Shown piece after piece: positions 38,030-54,571 of a stretch of DNA of 64,000 bases. The notes under the pieces are model-generated. The model was given only the letters and a program-made list of their open reading frames with translations. It did no database searches and was not told the DNA's origin. The position numbers and the translations under genes are program-made. Each line of letters opens with the position of its first letter. The first letter of the stretch is position 1. Origin of the DNA: an uncultured Actinomycetota bacterium (GTDB taxonomy: Bacteria > Actinomycetota > Actinomycetes > Mycobacteriales > Mycobacteriaceae); assembly GCA_963795995.1 (NCBI GenBank), contig CAWCJY010000005.1:44726-108725 (forward strand). Direction: 5' to 3'.

Positions 38030-38169
38030 GACGATGACGGTATAGCAATCACCCTCGCAGTCAGGCTTCTCCAACGACGCGAAAAGGTAGCGCCCGATGT
38101 TTGGAGCCATTAGCGTCGGTACGCCAGCGATTCTCGGGAGGAGGTTCGCTCGACACCAGGGGGCAAGAA

Positions 38170-39756
38170 TTGGGTAGCGGGTCGCGTTGGCGGGTGTGCT
38201 CGATCGGCGTGCTTGTGATGGTGTCGCTTGTCGCATGTGCGGGTCACAATCCGTCCGCATCAAAGAGTCCGGTCGGATCGACGCCTCAGCCCACCGCGCC
38301 ACAGCCGGCGTCCGTTCCCACCGTGTTGATTCTCGACGCCTCCGGATCGATGACCACACCGGACGCGCCGGGTCCGCGTATTGACGCCGCCAAGTCTGCC
38401 GCCAAGGGCCTGGTCAATGATCTGCCGGCGCAAGCCCAGGTCGGGTTGGTCACCTACGGCACCGGCACCGGCAGCAGCGACGACGAGAAGGCCGCGGGAT
38501 GCCAGGACGTGAAGACGCTGATCCCGTTGGGGCCGCTGGATCGCGCGGTTATGGATGCGCAGATCGACAGCCTGCAGCCGTCCGGCTATACACCGATCAG
38601 TCTGGCCCTCAGCAGGGCTGCGGAGCTGTTGCCCGGCGACGGCAGCCCGCAAGCCATCGTGCTGGTATCTGACGGTGAGGACACTTGTGGTCAGCCGCCG
38701 TGTGACGTGGCGAGGCAGCTGCGGCAACAGCATCCTGGGCTGTCTATTTCGACCGTGGGTTTCCGCACCGACGGCCCGGCCAGTGACCAGCTGAACTGCA
38801 TCGCCACCGCCACCGACGGGCTGTTCGTGCAGGCCGCCAACTCCGAGCAGTTGGCCGCGCGGCTGCGCGCCACCCAGAACGTGGCAGCGGCGAAGGAAAC
38901 TCTGTCGCCCAACGGCTTCGCCGGAATCACCCTCGGGTCGCGAGCTGGTGACATCCGCGCTGCGCACCCCGATTTTCCCGCGGTCGCTTCAGCCGGACAG
39001 GTGGTCGTCATCTGGCGCAACTGCGACTTCTCCTTCGTTGACGGTGTGCTGCGGTCGATCGCCCCGCATGACGGTGGCCGCACGATCGACGGAGTCACGG
39101 CCGGGTCGACCGTCACGGAGGCCATCAAGTTCTACGGCAACCCGGTGGGCACACCGACGATCGAAGGCGCGCTGAACTGGCTGGCGTTCGTCGCCGACGA
39201 GGCCGCACAGACCGCCTTCCGGATGGCCGTTGACGGGTATTCGGTCGCCGGCACCAACTACGCCGGCACGATCAGGCGAATCGTGCTCTGCAACTGCCTA
39301 CCCAGAGCGGCGCCGTCGGCGCCGGTGGCAACATTCGACGGCTTCGGAGCGCTGCGGATCGGGATGACCGAAGCCGAAGCGACAACCGCCATGGGTTCAG
39401 CCCCGAACAACCACTTCTACCACTGCACGGTGCTGGGGGAGAACCAGGTCATCTCATTGAAGGTCTGGATCGCCGATAGCAGCGGGCGGGTGACCGGCAT
39501 CGAAACACCAGCTGGTGCCATGACAGATCGGGGTGTGGGCGACGGTTCGAGTCCGGCCGAGGTCCGGGCGGCGTATTCCGGGCCGCAATACAGCATCGAC
39601 GAAGGCAATGTCGGCGGACAGGGCACGCCGGCGATCAACGTGTATGAGGGGCCGAAGGGCGACACGAACCATCGTCTGCTGAGCTTCTCGATCGGTGACG
39701 ACGGGCGAACCGGGCCACCCAGCATCGGACGGGCCACGGCCTCGGAGGGCTGCTGA
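38170..39756 (+). CDS. secreted/lipoprotein von Willebrand factor A (VWA) domain protein with C-terminal repeat modules
   Basis: The signal-like N-terminus is SRWRVCSIGVLVMVSLVAC (lipobox). The MIDAS motif LILDASGSM (DxSxS) lies at 38335-38349, followed by LVSDGEDTCGQPPC. The start (TTG 38170 or GTG 38194) is uncertain. Confidence 0.8.
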   Translation: MGSGSRWRVCSIGVLVMVSLVACAGHNPSASKSPVGSTPQPTAPQPASVPTVLILDASGSMTTPDAPGPRIDAAKSAAKGLVNDLPAQAQVGLVTYGTGTGSSDDEKAAGCQDVKTLIPLGPLDRAVMDAQIDSLQPSGYTPISLALSRAAELLPGDGSPQAIVLVSDGEDTCGQPPCDVARQLRQQHPGLSISTVGFRTDGPASDQLNCIATATDGLFVQAANSEQLAARLRATQNVAAAKETLSPNGFAGITLGSRAGDIRAAHPDFPAVASAGQVVVIWRNCDFSFVDGVLRSIAPHDGGRTIDGVTAGSTVTEAIKFYGNPVGTPTIEGALNWLAFVADEAAQTAFRMAVDGYSVAGTNYAGTIRRIVLCNCLPRAAPSAPVATFDGFGALRIGMTEAEATTAMGSAPNNHFYHCTVLGENQVISLKVWIADSSGRVTGIETPAGAMTDRGVGDGSSPAEVRAAYSGPQYSIDEGNVGGQGTPAINVYEGPKGDTNHRLLSFSIGDDGRTGPPSIGRATASEGC

Positions 39757-39868
39757 CTCAGCCGGCCTGGCGGCCGCGTCAGCCGCACCCGGTGCGCGTC
39801 CCCGAACTTGTCGGCACCCGGCCCTAAACTCGCCTTGCTCCCAGCGCCCAACGCCAGAAGGGGACAAG

Positions 39869-41026
39869 ATGCGATTCGTCCACACCGCCGACTGGCAGTT
39901 GGGCATGACCCGCCATTTCCTCACCGGCGAAGCCCAACCACGGTATTCGGCCGCCCGTCGTGACGCGGTGGCCGGGCTCGGCGCGCTGGCCGCCGAGGTG
40001 GGCGCGGAGTTCGTTGTGGTGGCCGGCGACGTCTTCGAGCACAACCAACTTGCGCCGAAGATGGTCAGCCAATCGTTGGAAGCCATGCGCGCCATCGGTA
40101 CGCCGGTGTACCTGCTACCCGGAAACCACGACCCGCTGGGCGCGTCGTCGGTGTACACCAGCGCACTGTTCACCGCCGAGTGCCCCGGCAACGTGGTCGT
40201 CCTGGATCGGGCCGGCGTCTATGACGTCCGGCCCGGCCTGCAGATCGTGGCCGCTCCGTGGCGATCCAAGGCGCCGACCAGCGACCTGGTCGCCGATGCG
40301 CTGCAAGATCTGCCCGCCGACGGAACCACCCGGGTGCTGGTCGCGCACGGCGGCGTCGACATACTCGATCCCGATCGTGCAAACCCCGCCCTGATCAAGC
40401 TCGTCACCGTCGAGGACGCGCTGGCCAGTGGCCGGCTGCACTATGTAGCACTGGGCGACAAGCACTCTCGTACCTGTGTGGGCAGCAGCGGTCGAGTGTG
40501 GTATTCCGGTTCACCCGAAGTCACCAACTTCGACGACACCGAGTCCGACCCTGGACACGTTCTGGTTGTCGACGTCGACGAAACAGCCACCGGTCGGCCC
40601 GTTACGGTCGACGCGCGCCACGTCGGGCGGTGGCGGTTCGTCACCATGCGCCGCCACGTCGACACCGGCCGCGACATCACCGATCTCGACTTGAACCTGG
40701 ACTTGCTGCCCGGCAAGGACCGTACCGTGGTGCGGCTGGCGCTGACGGGTTCGTTGACGGTGACCGATCGGGCCGCGCTGGACGCTTGCCTGGATAGGTA
40801 CGCCCGGTTGTTCGCCTCGCTGAGACTGTGGGAGCGCCACACCGATCTGGCGGTGGTCCCCGGCGACGGCGAGTTCAGCGACCTGGGAATTGGCGGATTC
40901 GCCGCCGCCGCCGTCGAAGAACTTGTCGCGACAGCACGCAACGGTGACACGCACGTCGCCGACGATGCACACGCGGCGCTGGCGTTGCTGCTGCGGCTGA
41001 CCGAGCACACCCAGGGCGCGGCGTGA
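39869..41026 (+). CDS. metallophosphoesterase, SbcD/Mre11-like nuclease subunit, Rv1277-like
   Basis: ATG 39869 (MRFVHTADWQLG...) gives 385 aa, with calcineurin-like motifs VVVAGDVFE, LLPGNHD and VAHG. Confidence 0.85.
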   Translation: MRFVHTADWQLGMTRHFLTGEAQPRYSAARRDAVAGLGALAAEVGAEFVVVAGDVFEHNQLAPKMVSQSLEAMRAIGTPVYLLPGNHDPLGASSVYTSALFTAECPGNVVVLDRAGVYDVRPGLQIVAAPWRSKAPTSDLVADALQDLPADGTTRVLVAHGGVDILDPDRANPALIKLVTVEDALASGRLHYVALGDKHSRTCVGSSGRVWYSGSPEVTNFDDTESDPGHVLVVDVDETATGRPVTVDARHVGRWRFVTMRRHVDTGRDITDLDLNLDLLPGKDRTVVRLALTGSLTVTDRAALDACLDRYARLFASLRLWERHTDLAVVPGDGEFSDLGIGGFAAAAVEELVATARNGDTHVADDAHAALALLLRLTEHTQGAA

Positions 41027-43629
41027 AGTTGCACCGACTGGCCCTGAGAAATTACCGAGGCGTCGCCAACCGCGACATCGAGTTTCCGGACAGCGGCGTG
41101 GTGGTGGTATCCGGAGCCAACGAAATCGGCAAGTCCTCGATGATCGAAGCGCTGGATCTGCTGCTGGAATCCAAAGACCGCTCGACGAAGAAAGAAGTCA
41201 AGCAGGTCAAGCCGACCAACGCCGATGTCGGGTCGGAGGTCACTGCCGAAATCAGCACAGGCCCCTACCGTTTCGTCTACCGCAAGCGCTTCCACAAGAG
41301 AACCGAGACGGAGCTGACGGTGCTGGCGCCGCGGCGGGAACAGTTGACCGGCGATGAAGCCCACGAGCGGGTTTGCGCGATCCTGGCCGAGACGGTGGAC
41401 ACCGACCTGTGGCGCGCGCTGCGGGTATTGCAGGCGGCGTCAACGACCGCGGTGGAAATGTCTGGCTGCGAGGCGCTCTCGCGTGCGCTCGACGTCGCCG
41501 CTGGAGCCACTGCCGGCCTGTCCGGTAGCGAGCCGCTGCTCGTCGAGCGGATCGATACCGAATATGCCCGCTACTTCACCGCAACCGGGCGGCCCACCGG
41601 AGAATGGGCGGCAGCGGCCGCGCGGCTGCGCGAGGCCGAAGAGGACGTTGCACGCTGGTCGGCGGCGGTCACCGAGGTCGAGGACCGGGTGCGACGACAC
41701 GAGGCGTTGACCGAGGAATTCGCCGAGCTGTCCCGACAGCAGGCCGTTGTGAGTGACCGGCACACAGCCGCCCAAGCCGCCGCCACCACGGTCGGTGAAT
41801 TGGCCGACCAGTTGCGCGAAGCACAGCTGGTCGCCGCCGCCGCGACAGCAAAAAACGCTGCCTCGAGCGCGGCGCACAGCGAACGGTTGCGGCTGCGCGC
41901 CGATCTGGGCACCCGCGCCGCGACACTCACCACGGTGGAAGCCGATGCCCGGAAAGCCGCGGGCGTGCAGTCAGCGGCGCAGCAAGCCGCGGAAAACGCT
42001 GACGCCGCCCTCGCTCGGGCCACCACCGCCCTGGCGACCGCCCAGCAGCGCGTCGACTCGTTTCGGCGCACCTTGGTGCAGGCTGCCGAGCATGAGGAAG
42101 CCGAGCGGCTGGCCGCTCGGCTGAGCAAGATCGACGCTGCCCAGCGTGACCGCGACCGAATCTGCTCGGAGCTCTCCGCAATCGGAGTCACCGAAGCCGT
42201 CGCTCAGCGCGTGGAAGCGGCTGCTGCGGCCGTCGAACGGATCGAAGGCCAGCTCGCCTTGGTTGCCGGAACACTCGAAATCACCGCGGCCGCCGACATT
42301 AACATCGTCACCGCGGACCAACATGTAAACCTGGCCACCGGCCAGAGCTGGTCGACCACCGCCAGTGAACCCGCCGAGGTCGAGGTATCCGGAGTGCTGA
42401 CCGCCCGGTTCAGCCCCGGCGTCACTACACGCGACATCCACGCGAAATACGCCGCGGCACAACATGACTTGGCTGCTGCTTTGGCGGCGGGCTCAGTCGC
42501 TGACCTGGCCGCCGCCCGGGTCGCCGACCTGCGTCGCCGTGAGCTGCAGGGCAGCCGCGATCAGCTGACCGCCACCCTGGCCGGGCTGTGCGGCGACGAC
42601 GAGATCGAACAGTTGCGCTCGCGGCGGCGTGCGGGTCAACCGGCGGTCGCCGGCGAGGTGAGCAGCACCTCCGCGCGCGCCGAGCTCGAAACGGCCGAAA
42701 CGGCTCACGCACAGGAGGCCACACAATGCGAGGCATGTCGGCGGGCGGCGGCAAGCGCGGCGGCAAAGCTCGCTGAAACAGCGGTTCGCACAGCGGTATT
42801 ACGCGACAAGCTAATAAGCCAACGCGCAGAACTGGATGCGGTGGCCGACCGGCTGGCCCAACAGCGGGCGGTGCTGACCGACGACGAGCTGGCGGCCACG
42901 GCAGATGCTGACCTGCGCGCTCGGCACAGCGCTGACGAGCAAGTCGTGGCTCTTAGTGCACAACTGGACCGCGCGGCCCCTGACGCGGTGGCGGCGGAAC
43001 TGGCCGATGCGGCCACGGCGGCCGAGGCGTTGCGAATCCGCAGGGATCAGAATGGCCGCGCTCTGCATGAAGTCACCGTGGAGCTGGCGGTGTTCGGTAC
43101 CGAAGGCCGTCACGGCGAGCTGGATACTGCCGAGATCCGCCGTGAGCACGCCGCAGCGCAGTACTCCGCCCTGCGCCGTCGTGCCGGTGCTGCCGAGCTG
43201 CTGCGCTCGGTGATGATCCGCCACCGCGACACCACCCGGCTGCGATATGTCGAGCCATTCCGCGCCGAGTTGCAGCGGCTCGCCCGTCCGGTGTTCGGGC
43301 CGAGTTTCGAGGTCGATATCGACAGCGATCTGAGAATCTGCAGTCGCACCTTGGACGGCTGCACCGTGCCCTACGAGTCGCTATCGGGCGGGGCCAAAGA
43401 GCAGCTAGGCATCCTGGCTCGACTTGCCGGAGCGGCGCTGGTCGCCAAGGAGGACGCTGTTCCGGTTCTGATCGACGACGCGCTGGGATTCACCGATCCG
43501 GACCGGTTGGCGAAGATGAGCTCGGTGTTCGACATTGTCGGCTCCTACGGACAGCTCATCGTGCTGACCTGTACGCCGGCACGGTACGACCGTGTCCAAG
43601 GCGCACATCGCATCGATCTGAGCGCATAG
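41023..43629 (+). CDS. SMC/Rad50-like AAA ATPase, SbcC-like, Rv1278-like
   Basis: 868 aa. Walker A GANEIGKSS lies at the N-terminus. There is a very long Ala/Glu/Arg-rich coiled coil, then the ABC signature LSGGAKEQL and Walker B VLIDDALGFTD at the C-terminus. The GTG start overlaps the SbcD-like stop (GTGA). Confidence 0.85.
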   Translation: MKLHRLALRNYRGVANRDIEFPDSGVVVVSGANEIGKSSMIEALDLLLESKDRSTKKEVKQVKPTNADVGSEVTAEISTGPYRFVYRKRFHKRTETELTVLAPRREQLTGDEAHERVCAILAETVDTDLWRALRVLQAASTTAVEMSGCEALSRALDVAAGATAGLSGSEPLLVERIDTEYARYFTATGRPTGEWAAAAARLREAEEDVARWSAAVTEVEDRVRRHEALTEEFAELSRQQAVVSDRHTAAQAAATTVGELADQLREAQLVAAAATAKNAASSAAHSERLRLRADLGTRAATLTTVEADARKAAGVQSAAQQAAENADAALARATTALATAQQRVDSFRRTLVQAAEHEEAERLAARLSKIDAAQRDRDRICSELSAIGVTEAVAQRVEAAAAAVERIEGQLALVAGTLEITAAADINIVTADQHVNLATGQSWSTTASEPAEVEVSGVLTARFSPGVTTRDIHAKYAAAQHDLAAALAAGSVADLAAARVADLRRRELQGSRDQLTATLAGLCGDDEIEQLRSRRRAGQPAVAGEVSSTSARAELETAETAHAQEATQCEACRRAAASAAAKLAETAVRTAVLRDKLISQRAELDAVADRLAQQRAVLTDDELAATADADLRARHSADEQVVALSAQLDRAAPDAVAAELADAATAAEALRIRRDQNGRALHEVTVELAVFGTEGRHGELDTAEIRREHAAAQYSALRRRAGAAELLRSVMIRHRDTTRLRYVEPFRAELQRLARPVFGPSFEVDIDSDLRICSRTLDGCTVPYESLSGGAKEQLGILARLAGAALVAKEDAVPVLIDDALGFTDPDRLAKMSSVFDIVGSYGQLIVLTCTPARYDRVQGAHRIDLSA

Positions 43630-43854
43630 GCAGGGCCTGGACGACAGTTTGCTGGTTCGGCTCTGGCGGCGAGCCGGGGGAATTACGATGAGCCGGTCGC
43701 TAAGTGAGTGACGTCGCTGGGGTGATCCATTTGCTGCAATCCGTATGCGGAAACCGTCCGGGGAGACGGTTGGCGACACAGGGACAAGCAAAGTCGTTTA
43801 CCCGTTCCGCTTCGTGTGTCTCGACAATCGGCGCTAGGCCGGCCCGGTAGCAGC

Positions 43855-44220
43855 ATGTCGCGCCTCTTCTTGAGCCACTCAAGCGTCAACAATGCCGAAG
43901 CTGTTGGCATGCGTGACTGGCTTGCCAGCGAAGGCTGGGAGGACCTATTCCTCGACCTCGATCCCGAGCGAGGCATCGCGGGCGGCGAGCGGTGGGAGCG
44001 CGCCCTCAACGAGGCCGCCGCGCGCTGTGAGGCTGTGCTATTTCTGGTCTCCGGGGCTTGGCTGGCTTCTGAGTGGTGCCAGAAAGAGCTGTCCCTCGCG
44101 CATAAGCTCGATAAGCGCTTATTTGGCGTGCTGATCGAAGGTATCGACCCTGCCGCGTTACCGCCGGACCTGAGCGACACTTTTCAAGTCGTCGACCTGG
44201 CTTCAGGGCGGGACCACCGG
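43855..44220 (+). other. TIR domain (approximate boundaries)
   Basis: MSRLFLSHSSVNNAEAVGMRDWLASEGWEDLFLDLDPERGIAGGERWERALNEAAARCEAVLFLVSGAWLASEWCQKELSLAHKLDKRLFGVLIEG. This has the beta-A FLSHS start, the E..L....C..vl.lvS block and the SxWCxxEL motif with the putative catalytic Glu at 44086-44088. Confidence 0.8.
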
Positions 44221-47200
44221 CAATTCAGGGTCACGCTGCCGCGCACGCATGAAGAAGTCCAGATCACCTTTTCACAAGAGGGCCTCAAGCGGCTTCGCGC
44301 TGGGCTGGTCAAGGCGGGCCTTGACCCTCGATTCTTCGACTGGCCACCGGAAAGCGACCCTGACCGCCCGCCCTACCGCGGCCTGCGGCCACTGGAGGCA
44401 GAAGATGCCGGAATTTTCTTCGGCCGAGACGCGCCAATCTTCGATGCGCTCGATCAGCTGCGCGGGCTGCGTGAAGATTTACCCGCACGGCTTATGGTGG
44501 TCTTAGGCGCATCGGGCGCCGGCAAGTCGTCGTTTCTACGGGCCGGCCTGGTCGCACGGATGGCCCGATATGACCGAGACTTCCTTCCATTGCCTATCGT
44601 TCGCCCGGGAAGGGCGGCCATTTCCGGCGAAAACGGTTTATTGCGCGCGCTCGAGACCGCGTTGGACAAGGCTCAGATCGGGTTGTCCCGCACGACACTT
44701 AGGGCGGCCATCATCGGGGGCTCGGAGAAAGTGCGCCCTATTCTTCAGGACTTGGTCGATAAGAACACACCTACTTTTTTCGACGACGAGATCTCAGCGA
44801 AGCCACCGGCTTTAGTCATCTCGATTGACCAAGGCGAAGAACTATTCCACCTGGAAGGACAGGACGAAGCGCTGTCGCTCCTTGCCCTGCTCCGAGACCT
44901 GCTGACTGATGACGCGCCAGCGTCGATCGTGGTAATCGCGATTCGTTCCGACTCCTATGCGCGGTTACAGGAGGCCAAGTCGCTGGAGGGCATACGGAAA
45001 GTCCCATTCGATCTGGGACCCATGCCGCGCGGCTCCTATGCTGCGGTGATCACGGGCCCGACCAAGCGATTGGAGGGAACAGCGCGGCCAGTCCAGATCG
45101 ACGACGCACTGGTCGATGTGCTGCTCCATGACGTCGAGGTCGGCGGGGCCAAAGACGCACTGCCGTTGCTCAGTTTCACATTGGAGCGTTTATACCTAGA
45201 GAAGGGAGGCAGCGGCGCCCTGACCGTCGACGACTACCACAACCTCGGCGGGATCAAAGGCTCGATCGAGGAAGCCGTTGCGCAGGCGCTCTTGGCAGAC
45301 ACCAACCCCCCCACTCCGAGGGACCGCACAACGCGGCTGGCGTTACTGCGCCGCGCGATGATCCCGCGGCTGGCTGACATTGATCCCGACACCGGCGCAC
45401 CGCGGCGGCGCGTCGCCCGGCTTTCGAAGATTCCGGTCGAATGCCAGCCCGTGCTCGAGAACCTGGTGAAACAGCGTTTGCTGACAAAGGACAGGGTTGC
45501 GAAGACGGGGGAGATCACCATCGAGCCGGCTCATGAGGCACTGCTTCGGCAGTGGGACCTCCTTGAGGGCTGGCTGACCGAGGATACCGCTCTGCTCGCG
45601 GTACTTGAGGGCGTCAAGCGCGCAGCACGGGACTGGACGAAGTCCGTTAGGAGCACTGGCTGGCTCACTCACTCCGCAGATCGCCTCGCGGCCGCCGAAG
45701 CGCTGAGTGAACGGCCCGACCTTGCAGCAAATCTGGAGCCGACGGATCTCGAGTACCTCGGCGCATGTCGCAGGGCGGAAGATAAGCGCCTAGCCGCTGA
45801 AAAGCAGCAGCGCGAAGCCGAGCTCGAAGCCGCAAAAAGACTCGCGGCTGCCGAGACAACCGCCAAGGAACATGCCGAAAGCCGGGCGAACGAAGCCCAA
45901 GCTCACACCGCGGTCCTGCGCAAGCGCTCACGCATCCTGCGCGCCGTGCTGGGCGTCACTGTCATCATTGCCTTAGTCGCAGTGTACGAGTTGTTCTCGG
46001 CACGGCAGGAGAGACGGGAAGCGCTGCAGAGCGCCCGGAATGCGACGGCGCAGAAGCTGGTCTCAGAGGCGCAGGCGATTCTGGCCGGGGCGAGCACTGA
46101 CGGCGACGATGTGCGAGCGTTCCAGGAACTTCTGGCGGCCAAAGAATTGGCGACCCAGCCGAACGACAAACCTTTGCTCGACGCGCTCGTCAAGAGATCC
46201 AGCACGGACCTCATTGTGAATAGCTCCGTTCCGGTGGTCGGCGTGGCGTTCGCCGAGGTCGGCCACCGCTTGGCCGTGGCCGACAGCAGCGGTCTGCGCT
46301 TATGGGACACCAGCTCGAAGACGTGGCTAGAGGACCTGCGCAAAAGTTCCTGTGCGGTGGGCCCAGTCGAAGAGAAATCCGGTCAAGTGGGCTGCTGGTC
46401 ATGGCCCATGGGCTCCAAGAAACTCACCAGTGTGGCAATCAGTGCCGACGGTCAAGTAGTCGCTGGGGGCAGCGAGGACGGGACCGTGCAGGTTTGGCAT
46501 CTAAACGATCGACGACCCGCGCCGAAATCTCTCGATCAACCGCACCAGGGTCGGGTGAGTGGCATTGCGTTGAGTCGCGACGGCCACCGCCTTGCCTCGG
46601 CTGGTGTCGATGGAACGATCGAGATCTCGAACACGGACGGGTCTGATATGCGTTCGATACGCACCGACGGAGCGATTTTCACCGTGGCGTTCAATCATGC
46701 GGCAGACAGGCTCGCGGCCGGCGGAGCGGACGGGGCCATCCATATTTGGAACGTCAGCAGCGTGCCGCCCGCGGGCGGCAATGTGCCGGCCGGCGACCAG
46801 CATCTGAATGCCCACACCGACGGAGTCATGAGTGTGACCTTCAGCCCGGACGATCAGCTCGTCGCATCCGGTGGCGCGGACAACACGGTGCGAATCTGGC
46901 ACAGCGACAAGCTCACCCCGGCGGGACAGTTGCCAACCCCGGCGGGCCAAGTTCACACAGCTCCCGTGACCAGCGTCGCCTTCAGTGCAGATGGCACCCG
47001 TCTCGTGTCAGGCAGCATGGACAAGACCGTGCAGCTGTGGGACGTCTTGAGTCGCCAGCAAATTGGCGACCCCATGATCGGACACCAGGGTTTCGTCCTG
47101 AGTGTGGCATTCATCACCGACGGCACCCAAAACGAAATCATCAGCGGCGGAAACGACCACGCACTGCGCTTCTGGAACGCCGTTGTCGGCCAACCACCTA

Positions 47201-48309
47201 CAAAACCTCTGATTGGCCATCAAGGCCCTGTGACGAGCGTGGCGATGAGTCCTGATCGCCGTCACATCGCATCAGGAGGCGTGGACGGGACGGTACGGCT
47301 ATGGGATTCTCACACCGGTATCGAGATCAACAAGATGACCGAGCCTGCAGGGGTCATCACCCGTGTGGCGTTCAACCAGGCCGGCGACGTGGTCGCTTCC
47401 GGAAGCGCGGACGGAAAGATCCGATTGTGGGACTTGACTACGGGCATCGTCACGCCGATTGACACTGGACGGCCGGTATCCGTGATCGCGCTAAATCGTG
47501 ACAGTAGTCGTCTGGCCTCCGCGGGAATCGACGGGCAGATCACGATCTGGGAGTTACCGTCTGGGCGAGTGACCCGGCTAGAGAATAGGGACCGCGCGAT
47601 GGTTTTCGACATCGCGTTCAATCCGCAGGGCGATCGATTGGCATCGGGCGGCGTAGCCGGGATTGTGCGTTTATGGCAACTCAACGGCCGGGAGGTGTGG
47701 GAGGCTGACGCCGCCGCCGAACTACCGGAATCGTTCAGCGACCAGTGGTCGCTGGCGATCGGACATCCCGGTGAGATCCTTGGTCTCGCGTTCAGTCCGG
47801 ACGGCCGCCGGCTGGCGTCCGGAAGTACCGTTTGGGGGATAGCGAACGGTGGGTCGGCCATCGGAGTGATCCAGCGCTGGAGTGCCGACACCGGCAGGCC
47901 GCTGGGCGGCCCAGCAGAAATCGGTAACGCAGGGATGGGTCTAGCGTTCAGTTCCCAATCGACCAACCCATCGGAGGACCGCGTCGTCGTGGGAAGCTTC
48001 GACCCCTATAACGTGCAGCTGTGGAGCGCCAGCGATGGGAGCCAATACACCTTCACGGGTCACGAAGGTCAAGTCGTAAGCGTCGCGGTTAGCCCCGACC
48101 GCACCCGCATCCTGTCCGGTAGCGTCGATGGAACCGTCAGAATATGGCCGAACCCAGCCCCAATCCCAGCCGTGGCCGCCGACGCCATATGCACCAAACT
48201 AACGACGACCATTAGCCGGGAACATTGGAATCGATGGGTGTCGCCACAGATCCCCTACCGAGACCTGTGCCCTGGGCTACCGCCGACTCCCGCTGGAATG
48301 CCTGACTAG
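43855..48309 (+). CDS. TIR domain / STAND P-loop NTPase (nSTAND1-like) / single hydrophobic helix / 14x WD40-repeat protein (candidate NLR-like immune sensor)
   Basis: Uninterrupted 1,484-aa ORF from ATG 43855 (an alternative GTG at 43816 adds 13 aa). See the sub-features below. It contains in-frame rare codons (TTA at 44503, 44638, 45190, 46300; AGA-ATA at 48139-48144). Confidence 0.9.
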   Translation: MSRLFLSHSSVNNAEAVGMRDWLASEGWEDLFLDLDPERGIAGGERWERALNEAAARCEAVLFLVSGAWLASEWCQKELSLAHKLDKRLFGVLIEGIDPAALPPDLSDTFQVVDLASGRDHRQFRVTLPRTHEEVQITFSQEGLKRLRAGLVKAGLDPRFFDWPPESDPDRPPYRGLRPLEAEDAGIFFGRDAPIFDALDQLRGLREDLPARLMVVLGASGAGKSSFLRAGLVARMARYDRDFLPLPIVRPGRAAISGENGLLRALETALDKAQIGLSRTTLRAAIIGGSEKVRPILQDLVDKNTPTFFDDEISAKPPALVISIDQGEELFHLEGQDEALSLLALLRDLLTDDAPASIVVIAIRSDSYARLQEAKSLEGIRKVPFDLGPMPRGSYAAVITGPTKRLEGTARPVQIDDALVDVLLHDVEVGGAKDALPLLSFTLERLYLEKGGSGALTVDDYHNLGGIKGSIEEAVAQALLADTNPPTPRDRTTRLALLRRAMIPRLADIDPDTGAPRRRVARLSKIPVECQPVLENLVKQRLLTKDRVAKTGEITIEPAHEALLRQWDLLEGWLTEDTALLAVLEGVKRAARDWTKSVRSTGWLTHSADRLAAAEALSERPDLAANLEPTDLEYLGACRRAEDKRLAAEKQQREAELEAAKRLAAAETTAKEHAESRANEAQAHTAVLRKRSRILRAVLGVTVIIALVAVYELFSARQERREALQSARNATAQKLVSEAQAILAGASTDGDDVRAFQELLAAKELATQPNDKPLLDALVKRSSTDLIVNSSVPVVGVAFAEVGHRLAVADSSGLRLWDTSSKTWLEDLRKSSCAVGPVEEKSGQVGCWSWPMGSKKLTSVAISADGQVVAGGSEDGTVQVWHLNDRRPAPKSLDQPHQGRVSGIALSRDGHRLASAGVDGTIEISNTDGSDMRSIRTDGAIFTVAFNHAADRLAAGGADGAIHIWNVSSVPPAGGNVPAGDQHLNAHTDGVMSVTFSPDDQLVASGGADNTVRIWHSDKLTPAGQLPTPAGQVHTAPVTSVAFSADGTRLVSGSMDKTVQLWDVLSRQQIGDPMIGHQGFVLSVAFITDGTQNEIISGGNDHALRFWNAVVGQPPTKPLIGHQGPVTSVAMSPDRRHIASGGVDGTVRLWDSHTGIEINKMTEPAGVITRVAFNQAGDVVASGSADGKIRLWDLTTGIVTPIDTGRPVSVIALNRDSSRLASAGIDGQITIWELPSGRVTRLENRDRAMVFDIAFNPQGDRLASGGVAGIVRLWQLNGREVWEADAAAELPESFSDQWSLAIGHPGEILGLAFSPDGRRLASGSTVWGIANGGSAIGVIQRWSADTGRPLGGPAEIGNAGMGLAFSSQSTNPSEDRVVVGSFDPYNVQLWSASDGSQYTFTGHEGQVVSVAVSPDRTRILSGSVDGTVRIWPNPAPIPAVAADAICTKLTTTISREHWNRWVSPQIPYRDLCPGLPPTPAGMPD
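44371..45225 (+). other. STAND-type P-loop NTPase module (approximate boundaries)
   Basis: Pre-P-loop motif PYRGLRPLEAEDAGIFFGRD. Walker A GASGAGKS lies at 44506-44529. The Walker-B/sensor-like LVISIDQGEELF lies at about 44812-44847. A helical/winged-helix-like region follows. Confidence 0.75.
45934..45996 (+). other. predicted transmembrane (or strongly hydrophobic) helix between NTPase and WD40 modules
   Basis: ILRAVLGVTVIIALVAVYELF is flanked by LRKRSR on the N-side and SARQERRE on the C-side, and is preceded by a charged coiled-coil segment (AEKQQREAELEAAKRLAAAETTAKEH). Confidence 0.6.
46228..48150 (+). other. 14 WD40 repeats (two predicted 7-bladed beta-propellers)
   Basis: I counted 14 units of the pattern H.G.V.SVAFSPDG..LASGS.DGTVRLWD. 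Examples are HTDGVMSVTFSPDDQLVASGGADNTVRIWH, HTAPVTSVAFSADGTRLVSGSMDKTVQLWD, HQGPVTSVAMSPDRRHIASGGVDGTVRLWD and HEGQVVSVAVSPDRTRILSGSVDGTVRIWP. Confidence 0.85.
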
Positions 48310-48319
48310 CATCGCCTTT

Positions 48320-48832
48320 TCAGGGCCGGTCGGAGTACAGGTATACGACGGCCGCGGCCCCACCGGTACACGTGACAAAGTCGCGTGAACTCAGGCAAGC
48401 GAGGTTGTACCACTTAGAGGTCGCGGGACTGAAAACTCTCAACTGGTTCGGTCCTGGTGAGGATGAATCTGGAGCCGCATACTGCTTACGCACCTGCTCG
48501 GCGAATGCACAAGACGTCATCGGCGTGCCGCGCGCGCTGGCATTAAACGGACCGGGAATGTCGGCGTCGATGGGTGTGCACTTCGCCGCACCCGGCGGTA
48601 GGCCCTCTACTGTCGGAATAGCGGACTCTGACCGAGTCTGTCGTGAAGGGTGCGACACCAAGGCGTTGATACTGAAATAGCACAGCACTATGACGGCAAG
48701 GACTATGATCGCCGCCGCGGCGCCTGCCCGTCTCTTCCACCATGGCCGCCTTGGCGGCGCATCAGTCCGCGCGGGGGGTGTCTGGGTCTGCGGCTCAGCG
48801 GTGTCAGCGCCGTCGCCGTCCGGTTCGGTCAC
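48320..48832 (-). CDS. hypothetical single-pass membrane protein with 4-Cys C-terminal domain
   Basis: 170-aa ORF with a Pro/Thr/Asp-rich N-terminus, basic stretch RRPWWKRR, TM helix AAAAIIVLAVIVLCYFSINALV, and a ~100-aa C-terminal domain with 4 Cys. It is convergent with the TIR gene, with stops 10 bp apart. Codon usage is atypical (ATA x2, AGA, AGT, GTA). Confidence 0.55.
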   Translation of the reverse strand: MTEPDGDGADTAEPQTQTPPARTDAPPRRPWWKRRAGAAAAIIVLAVIVLCYFSINALVSHPSRQTRSESAIPTVEGLPPGAAKCTPIDADIPGPFNASARGTPMTSCAFAEQVRKQYAAPDSSSPGPNQLRVFSPATSKWYNLACLSSRDFVTCTGGAAAVVYLYSDRP

Positions 48833-49089: not shown

Positions 49090-50748
49090 TTAGTCCCGGG
49101 TGAAACCGATTGCGGTGTAGATCGGATCCGCCAGCCCGAACGCGCCATAGTTCGACAGATCGTTACGTACCGCGGTGTCGCCGGGGGACTGGAACAGCGG
49201 TAGGCTAAATCCTTCCTGCCAGATCATTTGATCGACTTCGTTCGCGAGGGCGCGGGCCTTGCCCTGATTCAGCTCGGACAGCGTCTGATCGATCTTGGCG
49301 TCGATCTGCGGATTGCCGATCTTCCCGAAATTGCTGGCGCCGTCGGAGGTGAATATCTGCGGCAGCGCCGACAGCGGATAAGCGCCGCCCACCCATCCGA
49401 ATTCGACGATGTCGAAGTCTCCCGTTGAGACGTATTGCTCGAAGAAACCGGTAGCCGGTTTGGGATCGAGCACCAGCTTGACCCCGACTTGTGCCAGGTT
49501 CTGCTGAGCGATCAATGCGATCTCTCGTCGGAATTGCTCGTCGAAGAATGGGTCACGGATGACCAGTTGTTTGCCGGCTTTCTCCCGCACCGATCCATTG
49601 AGCTTCCAGCCCAACGCATCGAGCTCCCGGCGCGCCTCCTCGGGGTTGTAAGCGGCTGGCGCGCTGTTGTCATGGTAGCCAACCTGACCCGCGACGTAGA
49701 TGTGGTTGTTAAGCGGAACCGGATTGCCGGTGAGGCCGTGCTGGACGACGTTGGCAATGGTCTGGCGGTCGATTGCCTTACAGATCGCCAACCGCAGCTT
49801 CTCGTCGGCCATGATGGATCCTGGTGCACCGTTGAACGTGAAGTGGTACCAGACCGGGGCCGGCGCATGCCGGATCGTGATCCCGGGCGCGCGCCGCGCA
49901 ATGACCATGTCGTCGAGTGAACCCACGTCCGCGGCGTCGATCGCATCGTTCTGCAATGCGGGGACCACCGCAGAGGGGTCAAGCACCAGGAACGTGATTG
50001 AATCCAGCCGCGGCTTAGCGCCCCACCAGCGGGGATTGCGGGTCAGCACGATTCGCTGCGCGGCCCGGTCGATGCGTGACACGACGAACGGTCCGGCTGA
50101 CGGGCCCGGAGCGTTGAGCTGACCGGTGTTGAACACCTCCGGGTCCGCTGTCATGCTGCGGGGTTGCAAGCCGCTGAATATCGCCCGCCATTCCGCGTAC
50201 GGCTTGTCGAACGTCACCACCGCCTGGCGGTCGTCCACACCCCTGGTCACCGAGACCACCCGTTCGAACCCCGCACTGCTGGCGATCAAGAACCGCTGGT
50301 CGCGGCCACTGCACGCGTCAACCTCGGCTTTGAAGTCCTGCCAGCTGATTGGGGTGCCGTCGCTCCAGACCGCCTTCGGATTGATGGTGAATGTGGCGAC
50401 CTGAGGGGTTGTGTTGGTCAGTTCGGCACGGGTGAAGTAATCGGTGTTGAGCCGCTGTTGTCCGTCGGCGCTGGTGATGAACACACTCGGCGACGTCGGG
50501 ACGATCACGGACCCGGTGTCGGCCGAGTTTCCGTCAATGTTCAGTAGGTTGAAGTTCGACGGGAACATGTTCAGCGCGAGCCGCAGATTACCGCCGTCGC
50601 GCAGGGTTGCCGGGTCGCGCGGATTGATGTCGCTGGCTTTGCCGACTTGGGCCGCCCGCGCAGTCGGGAGGTCCCGGTAACCGTCTGAGCAGCCGGTGCC
50701 GATAAGGCACGCCAATAGTATGAGCAGCATAAGCAAGCGCACCGTCAT
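49090..50748 (-). CDS. oppA: oligopeptide ABC transporter substrate-binding lipoprotein OppA
   Basis: SBP family 5 pattern across the ~550-aa protein. The start is taken at the internal Met, giving MTVRLLMLLILLACLIGTGC (signal plus lipobox). Position matches Rv1280c. Confidence 0.88.
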   Translation of the reverse strand: MTVRLLMLLILLACLIGTGCSDGYRDLPTARAAQVGKASDINPRDPATLRDGGNLRLALNMFPSNFNLLNIDGNSADTGSVIVPTSPSVFITSADGQQRLNTDYFTRAELTNTTPQVATFTINPKAVWSDGTPISWQDFKAEVDACSGRDQRFLIASSAGFERVVSVTRGVDDRQAVVTFDKPYAEWRAIFSGLQPRSMTADPEVFNTGQLNAPGPSAGPFVVSRIDRAAQRIVLTRNPRWWGAKPRLDSITFLVLDPSAVVPALQNDAIDAADVGSLDDMVIARRAPGITIRHAPAPVWYHFTFNGAPGSIMADEKLRLAICKAIDRQTIANVVQHGLTGNPVPLNNHIYVAGQVGYHDNSAPAAYNPEEARRELDALGWKLNGSVREKAGKQLVIRDPFFDEQFRREIALIAQQNLAQVGVKLVLDPKPATGFFEQYVSTGDFDIVEFGWVGGAYPLSALPQIFTSDGASNFGKIGNPQIDAKIDQTLSELNQGKARALANEVDQMIWQEGFSLPLFQSPGDTAVRNDLSNYGAFGLADPIYTAIGFTRD

Positions 50749-50758
50749 CCCGACGATG

Positions 50759-52612
50759 CTAGCCATCAGGGCCCTCATGGTGGATCCGCGGAATCGCGCC
50801 CAGTAGTCGTCGGGTGTACTCGTGCTGGGGATTGGTTAAGACCTCTTCGCTGTCGCCTTGCTCGACGATCGTTCCCCGATACATCACCGCCACCCGGTGA
50901 GCGAGATGTTTCACCACCGAAAGATCATGTGAGACGAAAAGATACGACAGCCCGAACTGATCTTGCAGGTCGAGCAGCAGGTTGATGATGCCCGCCTGTA
51001 TCGACACATCGAGTGCAGACACCGGCTCGTCGAGAGCCAGAATCTTCGGCTGCAGGGCCAGCGCCCGGGCGATGCCTATTCGCTGCTTTTGGCCGCCGGA
51101 GAACTCGGCGGGATAGCGGCTGGCGTCGCCACGGTTCAGGCCCACAGTGGTCAACAGCTCCGCCACCCGGTCCTCGCGCCGATGCCGGTCCAACCCGTCG
51201 GCGACCAACGGTTCGGCGAGGATGTCGAACACCGGGAGGCGAGGATCCAGCGACGCCACCGGGTCCTGAAAGACCACTTGCAGGTCGGTGCGCAAAGTAC
51301 GGCGCCCGGATGCATTCAACGCCGCGACATCGGCACCGAGGACCTCGATCGAACCCGCCTCCGGTGTTTTCAGATCCAGAATCTGGCGCAGCGTCGTCGA
51401 TTTGCCTGAACCGGATTCACCGACGATGCCCAGCGTTCGGCCCTCCTCCAGGCTGAAACTGATGCCGTCGACCGCACGCACCTCGCCAACTCGCCTGCGA
51501 AGGATCACACCCTTGGTCAAGGGATAAGTTTTCGCAAGCTCGTTGACCTTCAGCACCACCGGGGAGCTACCGGCCCCGGTTTCGGTTGGCTCGGGAAGCC
51601 TGGACACGCCGAAGATCTCGGCTGCGCTGCGGCCGGCGACGTCGTCGGTGCGTATGCACGCCGCCGAGTGACCGTTGCGAATCGTCACCAGATCGGGTTC
51701 GGCCGAATAGCAATCGTCGACCACTAACGGACAGCGAGGCGCGAACGGGCACGCATCGAACGGCACCGACGACATCGTCGGCGGCGCGCCCGGTATCGGT
51801 ATCAGGCGGGTGCCCTGCGGGGCGTTCAGTCGCGGCACCGAACCCAACAGGCCGACGGTGTAAGGCATCCGGCGGTCGCGGTAGAGCTCGTCGACGCCGG
51901 CATTTTCGACCGCACGCCCTGCGTACATCACCAGCGCGCGGTCGGCGAACTCCGACACCACCCCCAAGTTGTGGGTGATGATCAGCACGCCCGCGCCGGT
52001 GACGTCGCGTGCGGTTCGGAGCAGGTCGAGAATCTGCGCCTGCACGGTGACGTCCAGCGCGGTGGTCGGTTCGTCGCAGATCAACAGGTCCGGGTCGTTG
52101 GCGATCGCGATGGCGATCACCACCCGCTGGCGCTCACCGCCGGACAACTCGTGCGGAAAGGCTTTCGCCCGGCGCGCCGGCTGCGAGATGCCGACCAGGT
52201 CGAGCAGTTCGACCGCGCGCTCGCGCGCATCGGCTCGGCTGATGTCGTCGTCGTGCACTTGGATGGCTTCGGCTATCTGGTCACCGACCGTATAGACGGG
52301 TGTCAGGGCCGACATCGGGTCCTGAAACACAGTGCCGATTGTGTTGCCGCGAATCCGTGACATGGCGTGGTCGGACAACCCGAGTAATTCCCGGCCCTGC
52401 AGCCGCACGGACCCCGATACCTGCGCGTGGTCCGGCAGCAGTCCGACGACGGCCATCGCGGCGGTGGTTTTACCTGAACCGGATTCGCCGACAATGGCGA
52501 GCACGTTGCCGGGCTCGATGGAATAGCTGGTGCCGCGCACCGCTGCGACGTGTACGTCATCGGTGGCGAAAGTGACATTCAAATCTGTTACTTCGAGCAG
52601 AGGCGCCGTCAC
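50759..52612 (-). CDS. oppD: oligopeptide ABC transporter, fused double ATPase OppD(F)
   Basis: Two ABC cassettes: GESGSGKTT / LSGGERQRV / [11 protein letters not shown] and GESGSGKST / FSGGQKQRI / [14 protein letters not shown] 52612 overlaps the oppC stop (GTGA), giving 617 aa against about 612 aa for Rv1281c. Confidence 0.9.
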
Positions 52613-53544
52613 TTCGGTCGCCGCTTTCTGGCGCGGGCAGGCCGACTGCGAGGGTCCAGCGCGTCCCGCAGTCCGTCGCCGGCAAGGTTGGCGCACAACA
52701 CGATCAGCACCAGAGCTCCGGCTGGGAACAAAAAGACCCACGGGAAGGTGGTGGTTGACGGGGTGCCGTCGGCGATCAGCGTGCCCAACGACACGTCGGG
52801 CGGCTGGATACCGAAGCCGAGAAAGCTCAATCCGGTTTCTGACAGCACCGCGGAGCCGACATTGAGGGTGGCGTCGATGATGAGGATCGAGGCGACGTTC
52901 GGCAGGATGTGGTTGACGATTATTCGCCGGGTCGACACTCCCATATACCTTGCCGCGCGGATGAATTCACGTTCCCGCAGGCTCATGGTCAAGCCGCGCA
53001 CCATTCGCGAGCTGACCATCCAGCCAAAGACCGCCAGCAACACAATGAGCCAGACTATGCTGCTCGACTGTTTGATGCGGGGAGTGATGATGGCGATCAC
53101 GATGAAGCTCGGCACTACCAGCATCAGGTCCACCAACCACATCAGCCCGCGGTCTCGCCAGCCGCCGAAGTATCCCGCCACCGATCCGACGGTGGCGGCG
53201 ATAGTGGTCGAGATCAGCGCGACGCAGAACCCGATCAGCAGCGACTTTTGCATGCCCCGCAAAGTCCGCGCCAGCAAATCCTGCCCGAGCGTGTTGGTGC
53301 CGAACCAATGTCGCAGCGACGGCGGCTGCAGCAGCGCGTGGTAGTCCAGCGCGGTGTAGTCGTACGGGAGCAGCGGTGGCATCGCGTAACAGCCGACGAA
53401 CAACAACACCAGCAGAATCGACGCCACCATCGCAGGTCTGTTGCGAATGAATCGCCGTATCAGCAAGTTTCGTCGTGACACGAAGTCCCCCGGCTGAATG
53501 CCGGCCCGCATGGGCGTGGCCTCCACGGTCGCTTTCTGCGTCAT
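52609..53544 (-). CDS. oppC: oligopeptide ABC transporter permease OppC
   Basis: 311-aa polytopic protein of the BPD-transport family, with the EAA-like loop [15 protein letters not shown]. Confidence 0.88.
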
Positions 53545-53593
53545 AAGCGCCGCTCCTCCTCATCGCTGCGCTCTGCATCGTCGCCGGCGCGCG

Positions 53594-54571
53594 TCATGAC
53601 ACCCGCACTCTGGGATCAAGCACCCCGTAGAGGATGTCGGACAGCAGCCCGGCCAGCAGAATGGTCGCTCCGATGAACACGGTGATCACGACGACGACGT
53701 TGGTGTCTTGCGTCGAGATGCCCTGCACGACCCATTCACCCATGCCGTGCCAGCCAAATATTCTCTCCACGAAGACCGCTCCGACCACCAACCCACTTAC
53801 CCCGTAGGCGAACAACGTGGCCATCGGGATCAGCGCGGTCCGCAGGCCGTGCTTGAGCAGCGCCCGGCGACGGGTGAGTCCCTTGGCACGCGCGGTCCGG
53901 ATGAAGTCCTCGTTCAGCACATCCAGCATCGCGTTGCGTTGGTAGCGGCTGAACCCGGCGATCTGGCTCAGTGCCAGAGTGAGCGTCGGCAGAATAATGT
54001 GCTGCGTGCGGTCGACGAGCTGCGCCCAGACCCCGCCCGGCGGCAGCGGAGAAGTCTCACCGGTGTACAGCAAGACTCGTGAACCGGTCAGCATGTTAAC
54101 CCGGAGGCCGCCGATGATGAGCAGGCCGGCCAGTACGAATGAGGGGACGCTCAAGACCAGCAACGACACCACGGTGATGACTCGATCGCTGAGCTGATAT
54201 TGACGCACCGCACCCCAGGCTCCCACAACGACGCCGATCACCGCGCCGAACACCGAACCGATCACCACCAGCCGCAAGGTGACCCCGATTCGCCGCCCCA
54301 GCTCCTCGGCGACCGGGTGACCAGTCACCGTGTCGCCGAAATCGCCGTGCAGGGTCCCAGTGAGCCAGGTTGCATATCGGATAGGGATTGGCTTGTCGAG
54401 GTGCAGCTCGACGGTTTTGGCGTCGACGGCTGCTTGTGGTGGCCGCGGATGGCGCTGAATGAAGCTGTCCAAGGGGTGAAACGCCGCCGAAGTCAGGCAG
54501 TACGTCAGGAACGACGCCAGCAACAGCAGCAGGATGTAGTTGAGCGACCGCCGCGCAAGGAAGCGAATCAT
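53594..54571 (-). CDS. oppB: oligopeptide ABC transporter permease OppB
   Basis: 325 aa, the same length as Rv1283c. N-terminus MIRFLARRSLNYILLLLLASFLTY, with the EAA loop NEDFIRTARAKGL. Confidence 0.9.
   Translation of the reverse strand: MIRFLARRSLNYILLLLLASFLTYCLTSAAFHPLDSFIQRHPRPPQAAVDAKTVELHLDKPIPIRYATWLTGTLHGDFGDTVTGHPVAEELGRRIGVTLRLVVIGSVFGAVIGVVVGAWGAVRQYQLSDRVITVVSLLVLSVPSFVLAGLLIIGGLRVNMLTGSRVLLYTGETSPLPPGGVWAQLVDRTQHIILPTLTLALSQIAGFSRYQRNAMLDVLNEDFIRTARAKGLTRRRALLKHGLRTALIPMATLFAYGVSGLVVGAVFVERIFGWHGMGEWVVQGISTQDTNVVVVITVFIGATILLAGLLSDILYGVLDPRVRVS

Follow-up and report, generated by a model that had tools for sequence, protein, structure and literature searches.

The described receptors closest to the one reported here are those of the nSTAND1 conflict systems, whose lectin-like sensors Kaur et al. 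(2021, PMC8195603) called 'intracellular invader-sensing' in a text that makes no mention of a transmembrane (TM) helix separating the NTPase from them. WD40 and FGE-sulfatase domains are among the sensor types listed in a STAND survey of 2026 which describes its receptors as recognising phage proteins within the cell (PMC13581612); a term search of that paper returned 'transmembrane' a single time, where a figure legend labels an effector, and neither 'membrane' nor 'periplasm'. Here we analyse a 64,000-nucleotide stretch of DNA from an uncultured bacterium of the Mycobacteriaceae (contig CAWCJY010000005.1; hereafter the window), in which a 1497-aa open reading frame (ORF) at 43816-48309 (+) encodes a TIR-nSTAND1-WD40 receptor that contains a hydrophobic segment as residues 707-727. 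Judging from sequence comparison, we put at about 0.75 the probability that this segment is a genuine single-pass TM signal-anchor of type II (N-in/C-out), splitting a STAND/NLR-like receptor across the cytoplasmic membrane.

Along the ORF the domains follow in the order TIR, nSTAND1 NTPase, charged helix, hydrophobic helix, helical stalk, about 14 WD40 blades and a Cys-containing tail. They are given below with residues counted from the GTG at 43816; the AlphaFold2 (AF2) model covers residues 600-1497 with a mean predicted local distance difference test score (pLDDT) of 72 and was read as secondary structure.

43816-48309, + strand: receptor ORF with TIR, nSTAND1, predicted TM helix, WD40 x ~14 and Cys tail (ORF call, profile matches).
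43867-44226, + strand: TIR_2 (PF13676), residues 18-137 (E = 1.3e-15; 58.4 bits against a cutoff of 28).
44371-45654, + strand: nSTAND1 STAND NTPase (PF20703), residues 186-613 (E = 2.9e-68; 231.7 bits against a cutoff of 27.1).
45739-45903, + strand: long charged helix toward the membrane, residues 642-696 (AF2 model, its helix 43-97).
45916-45933, + strand: basic cluster LRKRSR, residues 701-706, on the predicted cytoplasmic side (translation, flank charge).
45934-45996, + strand: hydrophobic helix ILRAVLGVTVIIALVAVYELF, residues 707-727, predicted single-pass N-in/C-out signal-anchor (hydropathy, conservation, flank charge).
45997-46203, + strand: helical stalk, residues 728-796, formed by helices 709-758 (continuous, including the hydrophobic segment), 762-778 and 785-796 (AF2).
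46204-48159, + strand: WD40 array, residues 797-1448, about 14 blades as two propellers, with an insert that carries the Cys pair C846/C860 (profile, AF2, Foldseek).
48160-48306, + strand: C-terminal helical tail with the motif C1459-x25-C1485 (LCxKLTxxxSxxxWxxWxSPxIxYxxxCPxLP; orthologue alignment, AF2).

The ATG at 43855 (M14, MSRLFLSHSS...) is a more plausible start than the listed GTG, because homologues begin at the equivalent of M14, without the 13 residues that the GTG adds. The PF20703 match spans profile positions 1-377 of 379, and Walker A (GASGAGKSS, 231-239) and a Walker B-like motif (LVISIDQGEE, 333-342) are both kept in the orthologue consensus. The TIR domain holds W87-C-Q-K-E91-L, which resembles the WCxxEL motif and is kept in homologues and orthologues; in NADase TIRs of plants and bacteria this motif carries the catalytic Glu, so that E91 is a candidate for that residue. 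With these three motifs conserved, the signalling half (TIR and NTPase) looks functional. On the sensor side, the WD40 profile match has E = 1.2e-89 and the AF2 model shows about 53 strands at residues 797-1445 followed by a small helical tail; its top PDB match in Foldseek is the 14-blade double propeller 2ymu (E = 7e-45), with Apaf-1 (3sfz) at E = 1.4e-33, in agreement with the 14 repeats that an earlier note on this DNA had counted. No DNA-level tandem repeat was found within the WD40 array, so the propeller gene is not 'highly repetitive'. The hydrophobic segment lies inside a helix of about 50 residues modelled at low confidence (709-758), as expected for an isolated TM helix, and a low-confidence break separates this helix from the one at 642-696. 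Pfam scans of linker residues 609-830 and of the stalk gave sub-threshold noise only, and exact-product look-ups returned no record for the window protein (started from GTG 43816 or ATG 43855) or for P0295.

The receptor resembles the nSTAND1 conflict systems in its NTPase, which scores far above the PF20703 cutoff, and in its two ends, with a TIR effector at the N-terminus and a sensor of the repeat or lectin-like kind at the C-terminus; its closest paralogues are in fact the TIR-nSTAND1-FGE(CLec) proteins of PMC8195603. It differs in the helix, found here in approximately 80% of the clade (119/146), and in the external position of the sensor that the evidence favours. With the antiviral Avs and bNACHT STANDs it shares the tripartite logic of effector, STAND NTPase and sensor, but no Avs, bNACHT or other system model of PADLOC-DB v2 matched it; the matches obtained were HEAT-ARM_XIII (on the WD40 region) and, weakly, mad3 (E = 0.0014) and ThsB (E = 0.0028), so that PADLOC names no known defence system here. 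The NCBIfam models for Thoeris ThsB and FxsC TIR-like also stayed below cutoff (24.1 bits against 130 and 19.2 bits against 220).

The likeness to Toll-like receptors that the earlier note had drawn holds for the logic, with a repeat ectodomain sensing outside, a single TM helix and a TIR domain signalling inside, and fails for the order, which is mirrored. Toll-like receptors are defined by an LRR ectodomain, type I topology and a C-terminal TIR, none of which was found; the receptor would be type II with an N-terminal TIR, carries WD40 in place of LRR, places a STAND NTPase between TIR and membrane, and has a TIR that by analogy is probably an enzyme and not an adaptor. The likeness is thus an analogy and not homology of the whole architecture. 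Apaf-1 and the AP-ATPases also join a NOD-type NTPase to a double WD40 propeller (3sfz), but Apaf-1 is soluble and without a TM helix, its propellers bind cytosolic cytochrome c, and it belongs to the NB-ARC clade and not to nSTAND1. The metacaspase-TM-CHASE2 (PMC3501461) and EACC2-caspase-TM-CHASE2 (PMC8195603) proteins combine a cytoplasmic death effector, TM helices and an extracellular sensor, and the same topological inference, external sensor and internal death effector, was made for them in those papers; they have another effector and no STAND NTPase between it and the membrane.

Andolfo et al. (2019, PMC7145615), in the part of the text available, remark in passing that NB-WD40/TPR proteins of bacteria and algae occur 'with or without transmembrane signatures' and propose a 'cell-surface surveillance' origin of NLRs; that remark concerns predictor matches in a few algal proteins, and the same part holds no topology evidence at the family level and no nSTAND1 or mycobacterial example. 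Doré et al. predicted a periplasmic CLec domain for some targets of diversity-generating retroelements (DGRs) and called the nSTAND1 targets cytoplasmic (PMC10907252). Our full-text literature searches found such passing remarks only: no description of a TM helix between STAND NTPase and WD40 or FGE as a family feature, and no paper that presents such a helix as what most members of a STAND clade have or that backs it with topology evidence.

The translation of 45904-46026 (+) reads HTAVLRKRSR-ILRAVLGVTVIIALVAVYELF-SARQERREAL, exactly the 21-residue segment between TIR plus NTPase and WD40, with its basic (LRKRSR) and mixed (SARQERRE) flanks, on which the earlier note was built. The Kyte-Doolittle mean over 19 residues (KD19) peaks at 2.26 at residues 710-729, the sole stretch of the protein that reaches 1.6 (runner-up 1.35), and an Eisenberg <H> of 0.80 with a hydrophobic moment of 0.09 indicates an evenly hydrophobic helix, not an amphipathic one. 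Taken alone the peak is suggestive but weak evidence, since shuffled sequences (see below) reach it too often, and the weight therefore rests on conservation at a fixed position across the family.

A homologue search with residues 1-830 found 3635 proteins, and the counts for close homologues given here cover the 120 matches listed plus the window protein, scored for KD19 of at least 1.6 at the equivalent position. A hydrophobic segment was present there in 119/121, whatever the C-terminal domain, and the 2 exceptions end before it. That domain is WD40 in the actinobacterial orthologues and an FGE-sulfatase domain (C-type-lectin fold) in a large soil-metagenome set, whose few named sources are Mycobacterium sp., Methylovirgula and Xanthobacteraceae. 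The nearest locus, L001, from an Actinomycetota metagenome-assembled genome (MAG), is 90% identical over the N-terminal 830 aa. The full-length orthologues L001-L004 (from Actinomycetota MAGs and Mycobacterium sp. E787; 1484-1508 aa) have the helix with in-helix identity down to 43%, and the helix sequences of the WD40 and FGE subfamilies are unrelated. As aligned, it is hydrophobicity that is conserved at the joint while the helix sequence drifts. The uncharged core averages 23.7 aa in the homologues.

A search unbiased by the helix, with the NTPase alone (residues 186-640) against 1.84 billion cluster representatives (50% clustering), returned 30,102 representatives at E ≤ 0.001, the best 150 being 47-75% identical to the query. 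Among the 146 of these best 150 with at least 120 aa after the NTPase, hereafter the diverse representatives, 119 (approximately 80%) carry a hydrophobic segment beyond the NTPase, the median spacing being 45 aa. Several of the remaining 27 show a basic cluster and then a weaker hydrophobic stretch (KD 1.3-1.57); in the truly TM-less relatives WD40 or TPR follows straight after the NTPase (P0134, P0168, P0193, P0221, P0236 and P0139). The earlier note had asked whether homologues keep the segment; most do, close and diverse alike, and by its distribution the helix is a frequent, old and dispensable module at the NTPase-sensor joint, acquired or lost and not universal, because TM-less relatives with the same WD40 sensor exist.

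The two halves of the receptor evolve at different rates: identity with L001 is 92-95% in the signalling half and 74-77% after the TM helix, the faster sensor half being as expected for a sensor. The TIR-nSTAND1 half (43816-45780) was also observed to be 64-72% identical to alphaproteobacterial and soil-metagenome FGE-sulfatase proteins (P0012-P0120, L005). This similarity ends just before the TM helix (approximately 77% query cover), which suggests, as far as alignments can, that sensors have been swapped at the membrane joint and that the gene has moved between phyla. A more distant protein of 1591 aa from Anaerolineales (L007, 6783-11558; approximately 30% identity) carries HTH_3, a Ser/Thr kinase, nSTAND1, a TM segment and WD40, a membrane-split C-terminal module paired with a different cytoplasmic output.

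The orientation of the helix is indicated by its flanks, compared as Lys plus Arg in the 15 aa before and the 15 aa after it. Close homologues average 6.05 on the N-flank versus 2.48 on the C-flank, with an excess on the N-side in 118/119; in the diverse representatives the averages are 5.1 and 2.6, the N-side exceeding the C-side in 108/119, equalling it in 6 and falling below it in 5. The window protein has 5 versus 3, with net charges of +5 and 0. The domains that follow the helix in paralogues point the same way. YARHG, presumed extracellular by Pfam, follows it in P0170, and Sel1 does so in P0222 and P0265; a dCache_1 match in P0127 is weak and below the Pfam cutoff. CHASE2 follows the helix in P0147, P0132 and P0197, and has been called an extracellular receptor domain (PMC8195603, PMC3501461). 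P0147 reads TIR, nSTAND1, TM (655), CHASE2 (668-1001) and three further hydrophobic segments (989, 1011, 1042), the usual CHASE2 arrangement, and its four spans would place TIR, NTPase and C-terminus on the same, cytoplasmic side. In these TIR-nSTAND1-TM-CHASE2 proteins, of which no description was found in the literature, a TIR gated by an NTPase is coupled to a classical sensor of extracellular small molecules. Two other representatives, P0128 and P0219, have TIR, nSTAND1 and TM followed by a caspase domain (Peptidase_C14, confirmed by Pfam for P0128 and assigned to P0219 by sequence clustering); their caspase-like domain may lie on the predicted outer side, or the topology of these proteins may be different.

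In disulfide-forming bacteria, among them actinobacteria, an excess of even Cys counts marks proteins that are exported to an oxidising compartment. The part after the helix of the TM-bearing representatives contains 0.48 Cys per 100 aa, with an even count in 70/88 of the proteins that have any Cys (binomial p = 2e-8), versus 57/112 for their N-terminal halves. The corresponding part of the TM-less relatives, a small control group, contains 1.21 Cys per 100 aa and is even in 5/16. Among close homologues of the FGE type, Cys counts are even in 108/111 after the TM helix (mostly 8 Cys) versus 43/111 before it. The window protein has exactly 4 Cys in its 770 post-TM residues, in two close pairs, C846-x13-C860 and C1459-x25-C1485, and L001-L004 keep both. 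We considered the tail pair as a disulfide marker in its own right; its occurrence in TM-less P0168 and P0221 weakens that use, and the family-wide Cys statistic is the stronger argument. Together, the Lys/Arg bias across the family, the CHASE2 and YARHG paralogues and the low and even Cys content favour TIR and NTPase inside and propellers outside by more than the 'mildly' of the earlier note.

Insertion would presumably proceed via the signal recognition particle (SRP), Sec and YidC, with the helix as an internal signal-anchor. The alternative of twin-arginine translocation (Tat) of folded propellers was rejected: a twin-arginine motif [ST]RRxFL precedes the helix in 1/119 representatives, and the window protein has KRSR. 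The earlier note regarded export of the large propeller part as unusual; behind an internal signal-anchor it is not. In mycobacterial PknD a TM helix joins a kinase to an extracellular beta-propeller, and anti-sigma factors share this plan. PknD shares with the receptor the cytoplasmic N-terminal signalling domain, the one TM helix and the extracytoplasmic beta-propeller in a mycobacterium, a layout which implies that such export is feasible; it differs in its kinase output, its six-bladed NHL propeller and the lack of NTPase and TIR.

Next to the receptor gene lies a small convergent gene, the two stop codons being 10 bp apart. Its product runs from a Pro/acidic N-tail through RPWWKR and a TM helix to an ectodomain of approximately 90 aa, in which four Cys are invariant and the motif ARGTPxTSCAFxEQVR...TCTGGxxAVVYLY occurs, and is itself predicted to be single-pass N-in/C-out. 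It adjoins the receptor gene in every orthologous locus examined (L001-L004, L006, L010, L011/L012).

48320-48832, - strand: partner gene, 170 aa, with N-terminal tail, RPWWKR, TM helix and 4-Cys ectodomain (ORF, hydropathy, homologue alignment).
Partner homologues: L001 12495-13025, L002 12534-13226, L003 12465-12974, L004 12469-12978.
Further partner homologues: L006 12556-13410, L010 3049-3555 (46% identical), L011 7001-7663.

The partner family comprises 36 proteins in 5.8 billion, and the few with source names come from Mycobacterium; the receptor gene is one among thousands of similar database entries. No Pfam family matched the partner, which by Pfam is not EACC1, and although its AF2 model is good for the ectodomain (pLDDT >90), Foldseek against the PDB gave nothing below E = 0.75. 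A partner predicted to lie mostly outside fits a receptor with an external sensor, and the protein is a candidate extracytoplasmic companion of the receptor.

Receptor and partner occur as a pair in three different neighbourhoods, with partner identity down to 46%. In the window and in L001 the surroundings include vWA, an SbcCD-like pair and opp; ABC-2 transporter, glycosyltransferase and GreA genes surround the pair in L011, and amidase and beta-lactamase-like genes do so in L010. In the window the upstream flank (38101-43629) encodes vWA, a calcineurin-like phosphoesterase and an 868-aa AAA_23/SMC-like ATPase (the SbcCD-like pair), with a Ser/Thr kinase and two ABC exporters farther upstream, and the downstream flank (49090-54571) holds oppA/D/C/B; synteny with L001 was seen for the upstream trio and for oppA and oppD. 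We take these flanks to resemble the Rv1266c-Rv1283c region of M. tuberculosis, into which the receptor-partner pair appears to have been inserted. At three loci (L006 8022-12546, L010 3591-8050 and L012 7670-12184) the receptor gene is split into several ORFs with partner and neighbours intact, and L011 is the intact counterpart of L012; the split ORFs reflect either recurrent pseudogenisation or indel errors in assembly.

In the mechanism that we propose, the TIR and nSTAND1 domains would work in the cytoplasm, where they would need NAD+ and ATP, while a helical stalk of approximately 70 residues, two seven-bladed WD40 propellers and the Cys-containing tail would stand in the periplasm-like space of the mycobacterial envelope. 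The propellers would bind a ligand on the envelope side, for which a component of an invader such as a phage, a fragment of the cell wall and an altered state of the small partner (48320-48832) are candidates. Either clustering driven by this ligand or a conformational change that travels along the TM helix and its flanking long helices 642-696 and 709-758 would carry the signal across the membrane and license NTP-dependent oligomerisation of nSTAND1 in the membrane plane. Oligomerisation would join the TIR domains, whose NADase or signal-nucleotide activity would then lead to growth arrest or cell death. The immune role of the receptor is inferred from its domain content and from the nSTAND1 and FGE literature (PMC8195603, PMC10907252, PMC13581612).

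Several points weigh against a membrane-split receptor of this kind, and the coupling between sensor and NTPase is the least secure step. In known STAND proteins the sensor maintains autoinhibition by touching the NOD module; a TM helix between the two rules out direct contact, so a different coupling would be needed, for which ligand-induced clustering as in Toll-like receptors and receptor kinases would, by analogy, be the simplest substitute. The helix of the window protein is itself less than ideal. Its charge-free core is just 15 residues (A710-Y724, between R709 and E725) versus 18-30 in orthologues; 9.8% of 5000 composition-preserving shuffles of this Ala/Val/Leu-rich protein reach KD19 of at least 2.26 somewhere (p ~0.1); and a simple Hessa-scale sum, which leaves position terms aside, gives the 15-mer -1.6 and a 19-mer that includes E725 +1.1. 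Across the family, the representatives are related, so that the counts are not of independent events, and the TM-less control behind the 5/16 is small (n = 16-19). Some relatives carry the same WD40 sensor with no TM helix, and the C-x24/25-C pair of the tail (window 48190-48270) recurs in TM-less P0168 and P0221, so this pair alone is no proof of a disulfide; in the helical cap that follows the last WD40 blade it may serve as a disulfide, a metal site or a structural element. Judging by gene content, the locus is not an obvious defence island, which, together with the lack of a PADLOC system, leaves room for an envelope-sensing role outside immunity.

That role is the alternative that survives best. 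It keeps the N-in/C-out topology and makes the protein a receptor for envelope state, development or kin recognition, with a TIR output that regulates and does not kill, and we regard it as somewhat unlikely. The absence of a PADLOC match accords with it, as do the housekeeping-like neighbours (vWA, the SbcCD-like pair, oppABCD), the chromosomal position of gene and partner, syntenic in related mycobacteria, and the nature of CHASE2 and Cache as general environmental sensor domains. Against these stand the treatment of TIR, STAND and repeat sensor together as counter-invader or conflict systems (PMC8195603, PMC13581612), the faster evolution of the sensor half, the occurrence of the gene pair in different neighbourhoods across genomes, like a mobile module, and the FGE-type sisters, which lie within a protein class diversified by DGRs (PMC8195603, PMC10907252).

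A monotopic or re-entrant tether, the alternative raised in the earlier note, would have the helix dip into the inner leaflet and leave the whole TIR-NTPase-WD40 protein in the cytoplasm, for example near the site of phage DNA entry. The TM-less relatives with the same sensor, which presumably sense in the cytoplasm, and the short uncharged core of the window protein (15 aa) would suit it, as would the characterised STAND sensors, which, as far as the 2026 survey covers them, act on intracellular phage proteins (PMC13581612). It is topologically awkward, because one helix of 15-30 residues that crosses the bilayer puts its ends on opposite sides; segments of 15-30 aa with a moment of ~0.09 are too short for a hairpin and do not make an amphipathic in-plane helix, and a Lys/Arg bias so strongly one-sided characterises helices that span the membrane. 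The tether also leaves the Cys parity and low Cys density after the helix unexplained in a reducing cytoplasm, a signature that the TM-less relatives lack, and the CHASE2 paralogues put the post-helix part outside. We consider it improbable.

We hold it quite improbable that there is no membrane segment at all and that the helix is buried in a soluble protein or oligomer, for instance as the core of a helical bundle, in a receptor as wholly cytosolic as the canonical Avs and NLR sensors. The 9.8% of composition-matched shuffles that equal the hydropathy of the window protein, its richness in Ala, Val and Leu, and E725 within the 21-mer speak for such a helix. A buried helix would normally keep its sequence or a heptad or amphipathic pattern, however, whereas here just the hydrophobicity and the basic N-flank are kept: identity among orthologues falls to 43% in the helix, and the segment is wholly different between the WD40 and FGE subfamilies. 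The segment moreover lies between two long, highly charged helices, and the arguments from flank charge, Cys parity and CHASE2 apply to this alternative too. The inverted topology, with TIR and NTPase outside and WD40 inside, is negligible: no point was found in its favour, the flank-charge bias is opposite, NTPase and TIR require cytoplasmic ATP and NAD+, and the Cys parity is confined to the C-terminal side.

Returning to the membrane-split receptor, this architecture is little discussed in the literature, with earlier hints in PMC7145615, PMC3501461 and PMC10907252. We suggest tentatively, as a possibility that we would not yet favour, that a large and widespread clade of bacterial NLR-like STAND receptors senses outside the cytoplasm, its ectodomains (WD40, FGE/C-type-lectin, CHASE2, Sel1 or unknown) being coupled by a single TM helix to a cytoplasmic TIR or kinase that the NTPase gates. 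Such proteins would be prokaryotic hybrids of Toll-like receptor and NLR whose detection of invaders or damage takes place in the envelope, ahead of entry or in its absence, and in mycobacteria would work with a dedicated small Cys-rich membrane partner. If this is true, the assumption of an 'intracellular sensor' for STAND-FGE and STAND-WD40 proteins would be wrong for most of the clade, and bacteria would own a surface-surveillance arm of NLR-like immunity that is similar in logic to Toll-like receptors. STAND activation would then occur across a membrane without contact between sensor and NOD module, a mechanistic question in itself, and the FGE/CLec sisters that DGRs diversify would turn out to be external receptors of a hypervariable kind. 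In mycobacteria, the receptor and its small partner would constitute a tractable candidate for sensing of phage or cell wall in the periplasm-like space.

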